From Bernardetia sp. ABR2-2B (GTDB taxonomy: Bacteria > Bacteroidota > Bacteroidia > Cytophagales > Bernardetiaceae), in contig NZ_CP147020.1 in assembly GCF_037126435.1 (NCBI RefSeq), positions 1,779,293-1,843,292 of the forward strand: a DNA stretch of 64,000 nucleotides, read 5' to 3'. Position 1 is the first letter of the stretch, and every line of letters starts with the position of its first letter. Positions 459 through 508 of this stretch are shown here, in pieces. The position numbers and the translations under genes were made by a program. Under the pieces are notes generated by a model. It saw only the letters and a program-made list of their open reading frames with translations, made no database searches and was not told where the DNA came from.

Positions 459-508
459 GATTAGTGATTAGTGATTAGTGATTAGTGATTAGTGATTAGT
501 GATTAGTG
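459..508. repeat. Perfect tandem heptamer microsatellite (GATTAGT)x7, abutting start codon of the PspB-like gene
   Basis: Seven uninterrupted GATTAGT units read directly at 459-508. On the coding (minus) strand this reads (ACTAATC)7-T-ATG. Confidence 0.95.

Follow-up and report, generated by a model that had tools for sequence, protein, structure and literature searches.

The array, its gene and the leader

The 64-kb stretch of DNA analysed here, which we call the window and which comes from the marine bacterium Bernardetia sp. ABR2-2B (Bacteroidota, Cytophagales, Bernardetiaceae), carries at 170-457 on the minus strand the gene for a PspB-like small membrane protein of 95 amino acids, as delineated by the ORF list, Pfam and a homologue alignment. 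Upstream of this gene lies a perfect heptamer array, (GATTAGT)x7 on the forward strand and (ACTAATC)x7 on the coding strand, at 459-507 (-), which is evident on direct reading and is also the top-scoring tandem repeat of the window in Tandem Repeats Finder (459-509, period 7, 7.3 copies, 100% matches, 0 indels, score 102). On direct reading, positions 508-509 hold a partial unit, GA, position 458 is a single base and 455-457 reads CAT, the minus strand thus presenting (ACTAATC)7, then T, then ATG. This spacer base T (458) and the start codon (457-455) together occupy 455-458 (-), in accordance with the ORF list. Seven perfect GATTAGT units flush to the start, as given in the preliminary description, are thereby confirmed at a distance of 1 nt from the ATG, and the array does constitute, on the coding strand, the entire proximal 5' leader of the PspB-like gene, as that description had also stated. 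The start codon itself is secure, because M1 of the protein is invariant across 13 homologues (alignment A2) and an in-frame TAA is found at -6, two codons upstream of the ATG and within the last repeat unit.

The product is 100% identical to the hypothetical protein WAF17_07425 of Bernardetia sp. ABR2-2B and combines an N-terminal hydrophobic helix with a conserved core, LKQRNHELE...VTSIDPELLGGLLE; the contig index searched contains no exact copy of this protein. Its match to the Pfam PspB family (PF06667), with an E-value of 4.9e-5, falls below threshold at 23.7 bits where the gathering score is 25.6, and all 13 homologues give a likewise weak match (best E 2.1e-5). The earlier label 'PspB-like' is a reasonable one for the 95-aa product, albeit at a score under the family's own limit. 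Neither pspA nor pspC occurs as a neighbour at the Bernardetia loci inspected.

The sense strand of the repeat is G-free. The leader together with the start region (96 nt) has a minimum free energy of -2.8 kcal/mol with a fully open centroid and z = +0.9, the DNA strand of the array folds to 0 kcal/mol, and the array itself has no match in Rfam. On both strands, every reading frame of the repeat meets a stop codon within 21 nt, the transcribed repeat providing TAA in all three frames; because stops occur in every frame and in either direction, arrays of this kind must remain outside ORFs.

With respect to the promoter, neither the array nor the 200 nt upstream contains a -7 box of the Bacteroidota type (TAnnTTTG, at least 5 of 6 positions); the array by itself is therefore no promoter and has to be part of any leader. 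A scan for sigma-70 promoters and terminators returned sites at background level (9 against 7.0 expected), and between the upstream terminator and the ATG neither the sigma-70 nor the Bacteroidota -33/-7 scan revealed a recognisable promoter. Directly 5' of the array, at 508-538 (-), lies a conserved block, CAAAACATATT...N...AATTATTTC, which is found in the same place in seven of ten Bernardetia lineages (alignment A1) and may serve as a promoter or operator. Further upstream, at 586-655 (-), a nearly invariant element of about 65-70 nt, composed of UUUUCAUAUCAAUAGGGUUAAGUUGUAAGUUGAAAAG followed by a terminal GUCCGAUAAGUUAUCGGAC hairpin and U8, precedes the PspB-like gene in all ten of the lineages; in Rfam it matches FopS, a family of sRNAs from Bacteroidetes, only weakly, at 22.7 bits where the gathering score is 56, and it is a candidate sRNA or leader terminator. 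To judge from these elements, the promoter of the PspB-like gene must lie within or upstream of the conserved block, in a region bounded by the 586-655 element, unless transcription reads through the upstream terminator. In either case the array would be transcribed as a 5' leader of the form (ACUAAUC)7-U-AUG.

Period-7 repeats in the window, in relatives and beyond

As a single unit the heptamer is not enriched in the window, with 12 occurrences against 11.2 expected and only 5 outside the array. Two-unit matches with at most two mismatches number 9 against 0.88 expected, a count that 0 of 100 shuffles of the window reach. Thirteen tandem arrays of period 7 or 14 appear in the Tandem Repeats Finder table for the window, 12 of them intergenic, and 6 of the 13 end 0-5 nt before a start codon; by contrast, the 11 arrays with other non-triplet periods all lie away from starts, 7 of them inside ORFs. 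Autocorrelation, measured over the 56 nt that precede each of 52 gene starts with a cut-off of at least 0.47, gave a concordant picture: the cut-off is reached at period 7 in 7 of the 52 genes (about one expected), at period 14 in 9 of the 52 and at every other period in 0-2, composition shuffles yielding 0.7-1.6 genes and coding controls 0. The enrichment near other gene starts that had been envisaged for the heptamer is thus found for period-7 repeats generally, but not for the exact word.

The downstream genes of the six start-flush arrays are functionally unrelated, comprising, with the gap between array and start in brackets, the PspB-like gene (1 nt), ruvA (0), the gene at 21596-22213 (0), a 4HBT thioesterase gene (5), the gene at 26567-27655 (3) and hutU (3). 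The ruvA ATG at 12178 directly follows a degenerate period-7 array, ATAACTA ATAATTA ATCCCTA AAAACTA ATCACTA CTAA, at 12139-12177 (+), and the period-7 autocorrelation of this leader is 0.61. Period-14 arrays are found at 22214-22255 (-), abutting the ATG at 22213 of the gene 21596-22213, and at 26530-26563 (+), where TTTCTCACAAAATT x2.5 ends 3 nt before the ATG at 26567. In the thioesterase leader, the degenerate period-7 array CACTAAT CACTAAA AATTAAT CGTTAAT CATTA at 24977-25010 (+), 5 nt before the ATG at 25016, contains one exact ACTAATC; the heptamer had been said to occur twice at 24977-24990, but of this stretch, TCACTAATCACTAA, the second copy is a 5-base partial unit only. The urocanase gene hutU, with its ATG at 42891, is preceded at a distance of 3 nt by four 7-nt units, CGTAATT TTTAATT CGTAATT CGTAATT on the coding strand, at 42895-42923 (-). 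A relative with 97% identity has the same array of four CGTAATT-type units in its hutU leader, and B. litoralis DSM 6794 and another lineage have ACTTCTA-type heptamers instead, so that the hutU array, as far as these sequences indicate, is likewise lineage-specific. A fixed register of the repeat TAA relative to the ATG was sought across the start-flush arrays, and none was consistent. In the leaders of the window, words of the CTAAT type are biased to the sense strand (TAATC 14 vs 4, ACTAA 15 vs 3).

Arrays of the unit AATTACG, read as CGTAATT from the minus strand, occur at 38634-38651 and, 4 kb away, at 42895-42923. The former is situated 77 nt upstream of the gene 37726-38556, and the contig of one related assembly stops at the hutU array.

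The orthologous locus of the PspB-like gene was compared in ten Bernardetia lineages, ABR2-2B and nine others, with proteins 72-90% identical; a metagenome search with the PspB-like protein alignment returned one locus only. Where ABR2-2B has (ACTAATC)7 at 1 nt from the ATG, Wsw4-3y2 carries between block and ATG the sequence 'CACTAC ACTAATC ACTATTTT', equivalent to about one unit; one metagenomic lineage, present in two metagenome assemblies from different samples, has (CCCTAAT)10, a JGI metagenomic lineage (CCCTAAT)5, one MAG four or more CCCTAAT units in an array interrupted by an assembly gap, and one lineage (CCATTAA)2; and four lineages, including strain OM2101, have no array, only degenerate CTTCTAA-like heptamers or a 40-nt spacer. 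CCCTAAT is one base off a rotation of ACTAATC. The arrays in the relatives always expand directly 3' of the conserved AATTATTTC block, and short-read contigs of relatives terminate inside the array, at k-mer length. The view of the array as a substrate for slippage, put forward in the preliminary description, is borne out by this comparison, in which the same site holds about 1, 2, 5, 7 or 10 units or none. Judged by these alignments, the array is lineage-specific, the differences in units between lineages are the behaviour of a slippage-prone microsatellite, and this microsatellite has been born, has grown, mutated and decayed at one fixed position; on the same grounds the exact array cannot be essential to the PspB-like gene. 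It is solely from these differences between lineages that we infer slippage within populations.

A start-proximal module, CTTCTAA(C/T)TTTATTT(A/T)T-ATG, is nearly the same at the unrelated PspB-like and hutU genes in several Bernardetia lineages, as scored over positions -20 to -1 at six PspB-like and two hutU loci; in ABR2-2B the ACTAATC array stands in place of the CTTCTAA module. The TAAnTTTA box of this module, at -13 (-15 in one locus), agrees with the -7 promoter motif of Bacteroidota in 5 of 6 positions, and if it acts as a promoter, the mRNAs bearing the module would be leaderless.

A search for (CTAATCN)x4 or more, in one genome per species, retrieved at least 120 stretches from many phyla, those listed including none from Bernardetia. 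Among the matches listed, 35 of 125 CTAATCN arrays have at least 7 units, identical ACTAATC arrays reach 10-11 units, and the variable base N is mostly C or A; the characterisation of seven uninterrupted units as exceptional in a bacterial genome was therefore an overstatement. The orientation of the listed arrays with respect to the downstream start is weakly biased to the CTAATC sense: of the arrays within 50 nt, 26 are forward and 12 reverse (p = 0.03), the overall figures being 51 and 35 (p = 0.1). In viral contigs, CTAATCN arrays of four units were found in 41 stretches, and three composition-matched scrambled units in 17, 21 and 28, such that scrambled heptamers form arrays at 0.4-0.7 times the CTAATCN frequency. 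Since scrambled units also form arrays, generic slippage is favoured over one specially recognised word. The listed CTAATC(C/A) arrays are distributed over Planctomycetota, Verrucomicrobiota, Acidobacteriota, Chloroflexota, Cyanobacteria, Bacteroidota and Gammaproteobacteria, and many are found at contig ends. Those in distant phyla are often flanked, among the matches listed, by one-base-variant runs such as CCCTAAC, CACTAGT, CCCCAAT and CCCTGAT. The sequences suggest that arrays mutate and then re-expand in place.

Described heptamer repeats and the origin of the array

Sense heptamer repeats just upstream of start codons constitute an already described class, to which the array, by its layout, belongs. 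TAACTGA direct repeats have been reported from Beggiatoaceae, cyanobacteria and five Bacteroidetes; in the largest class the repeats are forward-oriented and stop 1 nt short of the start codon. They have neither a Shine-Dalgarno sequence nor a predicted structure, and the genes that follow them show no functional theme (MacGregor 2015, PMC4679880). In Flexibacter (now Bernardetia) litoralis DSM 6794, 12 of 14 TAACTGA sets are forward and located 1-43 nt from the start (PMC4679880). The window array has in common with these repeats the perfect tandem 7-nt units, the intergenic and sense placement ending 1 nt before the start, the lack of room for a Shine-Dalgarno sequence and of RNA structure, the stops when read forward, the absence of a functional theme downstream and the breakage of relatives' contigs in the arrays. 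Yet its unit is ACTAATC, which agrees with TAACTGA at 5 of 7 positions in the best register, and it is therefore the same kind of element rather than a TAACTGA repeat in the strict sense. It also has 7 copies where 2-6 are typical in Ca. Maribeggiatoa, and in the genome of the latter one heptamer dominates, whereas the window carries several different units. Of TAACTGA arrays proper the window holds only one degenerate triplet, AAACTGG-TAACTGA-TTACTGA at 12766-12786 (-), in reverse orientation and 4 nt past the ruvA stop; one F. litoralis TAACTGA set is placed in a similarly unusual manner (PMC4679880).

A second group comprises the GGGNATC repeats of Xanthomonas and the GGGGA(C/T)T repeats of Nostoc, the G-rich strand of which is non-coding and which occur within 50 bp upstream of ORFs, are mostly transcribed and have no link to surface genes, phase variation being judged unlikely (Rehm et al. 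2015, PMC4692102). Again the 7-nt intergenic unit, the variable unit number and the lack of ties to surface genes are shared, and in both cases the leader RNA is G-poor, the G-rich strand being the non-coding one. At the orthologous site, the sister array (CCCTAAT)n differs from the complement of Nostoc GGGGATT by one base. The window unit, unlike this group, has no G-tract, so that the G-quadruplex property which defines the class is absent from it, in a genome of 32% G+C; at least four tracts of at least three G on one strand are present in the relatives' (CCCTAAT)n and lacking in the window array. For the cyanobacterial heptamer repeats the name STRR was reportedly used by Mazel et al. in 1990. 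The window itself contains, at 55887-55919, an intergenic array TCCCAGT-TCCCAGT-TCTTACT-TCCCATG, separated from the preceding gene by 67 nt and from the following one by 101 nt, with a unit one base from the cyanobacterial CCCCAGT (STRR1) / GGGGACT repeat.

In Nostoc PCC 7120, (GAC(C/T)AAT)x8 is contiguous with and overlaps the recO start codon, at least 13 genes having the unit no more than 30 nt from their start, and deletion of the recO repeat changed reporter output only about 2-3 fold (Pradhan et al. 2022, bioRxiv 10.1101/2022.06.06.494920). Rotated to CACTAAT, the window unit differs from GACTAAT by one base, but the Nostoc recO/recF repeats belong to another phylum and, in contrast to the window array, overlap LexA/NtcA-regulated promoters.

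We consider it probable that the array is a slippage-generated, lineage-specific heptamer microsatellite in a 5' leader and a member of this described class. In terms of mechanism, replication slippage would have enlarged the array within the leader of the PspB-like gene, and arrays of this type would be tolerated, perhaps mildly favoured, right before starts, because they are unable to spread into coding sequence and because they hold the initiation region in a single-stranded state. Bacteroidota largely initiate translation without Shine-Dalgarno pairing, and for this reason an open leader matters in these organisms. Gain or loss of a unit would alter the length of the leader by 7 nt and tune expression at most quantitatively, with no ON/OFF switching; by a loose analogy with the Nostoc reporter data, the effect on expression is likely near-neutral or quantitative. 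The clustering at 0-5 nt from starts nevertheless exceeds the obvious prediction of passive tolerance and leaves room for a positive function.

A rival reading, which we regard as unlikely, is that of a contingency locus or rheostat, in which 7-bp units would often be gained and lost within a population and so modify promoter-to-start spacing or UTR length, giving heritable and reversible high/low bet-hedging. Unit number at the exact site does differ between lineages, and the product is an envelope protein of the stress-response type. There is also the precedent of heptanucleotide tracts upstream modulating expression in H. influenzae, where, in the account of Dawid et al. 1999 given by Power et al. 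2009 (PMC2651432), (TGAAAGA)n of 13-38 units lies about 70-100 bp upstream of hmw1A/hmw2A. An (AACAACC)1-7 tract 13 bp upstream of a TonB-dependent receptor gene has been described as well (PMC2651432). The likeness to the hmw1A/hmw2A tract, as far as that account goes, consists in a 7-nt tandem repeat upstream of a gene with unit number differing between strains; unlike the window array, however, the tract is inside the promoter region, the genes encode adhesins of a host-adapted pathogen and modulation has been experimentally shown. The array of the window, in turn, is located outside any ORF, at 49 bp is too long for a -33/-7 spacer and has no -7-like box nearby. Moreover, the PspB-like product is a small envelope protein, but the sibling start-flush arrays precede housekeeping genes (ruvA, hutU, thioesterase), which are not of the contingency type, relatives carry the PspB-like gene without any array, and in one lineage the number of units assembled is 10 from either of two metagenome samples. 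Bernardetia, finally, is a free-living marine organism and not a host-adapted pathogen. Two published heptamer surveys likewise saw no association of the repeats with genes for surface or adaptation functions (PMC4679880, PMC4692102). The phase-variable ON/OFF expression originally proposed for this gene hence finds no support in the position and length of the array, its housekeeping siblings or the array-free relatives.

It is similarly improbable, in our estimation, that the array acts as an iterated recognition site on mRNA or DNA, at which a dedicated factor would recruit or block ribosomes or RNA polymerase and through which the repeat-preceded genes would form one regulon. The clustering of arrays 0-5 nt from starts, where they overlap the ribosome landing site, would fit such a role, as would the sense-strand bias of CTAAT-type words in leaders, although the latter may merely reflect G-poor leaders. 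[quoted passage not shown] The proposal is weakened by the diversity of the unit across loci and lineages (ACTAATC, CCCTAAT, CGTAATT, CCATTAA, CTTCTAA-like), the best-register match to ACTAATC being only 4-5 of 7 for CGTAATT, CTTCTAA and TAACTGA. In addition, the exact heptamer is not enriched outside the array in the window, scrambled heptamers of the same composition form arrays at 17-28 loci of the viral contigs against 41 for CTAATCN, and close relatives lack the array. The iterated binding site suggested as an alternative in the preliminary description has, on this evidence, lost ground. An even broader proposition, that start-abutting heptamer arrays could be a distinct non-Shine-Dalgarno initiation or regulatory element common to Bacteroidota, cyanobacteria and Beggiatoaceae, read by a specific factor (S1, cold-shock-type or other) and with unit number as an evolvable output dial, we would call a long shot.

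Scarcely credible is a non-B DNA structure (G-quadruplex or hairpin) affecting transcription or replication, or else an assembly error in the length of the array, since, even though the opposite strand of the relatives' (CCCTAAT)n is (AGGGATT)n, a unit that differs by one base from Nostoc GGGGATT, which forms G4, and short-read assemblies break in such arrays, GATTAGT has isolated G only and no G-run, so that G-quadruplex formation is impossible, both strands fold to about 0 kcal/mol, and the source is a single 5.3-Mb contig in which 49 bp is below any modern read length.

Giant sulfur bacteria, cyanobacteria and a few Bacteroidota are known to carry start-adjacent heptamer repeats, the role of which is not established in that literature. 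To this the locus adds a long perfect example from a cultivated genus, one site gaining, losing and changing its repeat between close relatives and, within the 64-kb window, a concentration 0-5 nt before starts of period-7 repeats and of no other non-triplet period. Cultivable Bernardetia strains provide a natural allelic series (0, about 1, 5, 7 and 10 units) at one orthologous gene. If the repeats affect non-Shine-Dalgarno translation, this series is a ready-made experiment on a question roughly ten years old; if they do not, it is a clean case of where selection tolerates microsatellites. A practical consequence is that heptamer arrays break short-read assemblies.

The conserved sequence upstream

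The 586-655 element was also considered as a partner of the repeat leader, but pairing between the two was rejected, the duplex energy of -15.9 being the mean for leaders of the window. The unpaired part of the element contains a perfect 13-nt complement (ACAACUUAACCCU) to the leader of a T9SS-secreted SdrD-like protein, the candidate target site occupying 54982-54994 (-), 11-23 nt before the ATG at 54971. Complementarity over 10 nt extends to the leader of the gene 37726-38556 (about 38557-38590, -), and a 9-nt complement is situated right before the ATG of the CHRD-domain gene 3286-3723 (3724-3735, -). The element looks like an undescribed trans-acting sRNA with predicted targets inside the window.

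Between the gene for a beta-lactamase-family T9SS protein and the sRNA-like element there is an AT-rich spacer of 550 nt in which several blocks are conserved in six lineages. These blocks (window 660-1000 (-); alignment A1 columns 130-360) include TTCAAAATAAATTCAGAATTTGTAAATAATT...CTTTTAAGAAACC...ATTTTCCGTTCTAA and TTTTTCAAAGATAGTTTTAGGGATTCTTTGAAAAA, and no ORF or Rfam match accounts for them. In Wsw4-3y2, an IS element with a DDE_Tnp_1 transposase, at 522-1322 of the locus sequence, is inserted between the beta-lactamase-family gene and the sRNA-like element.
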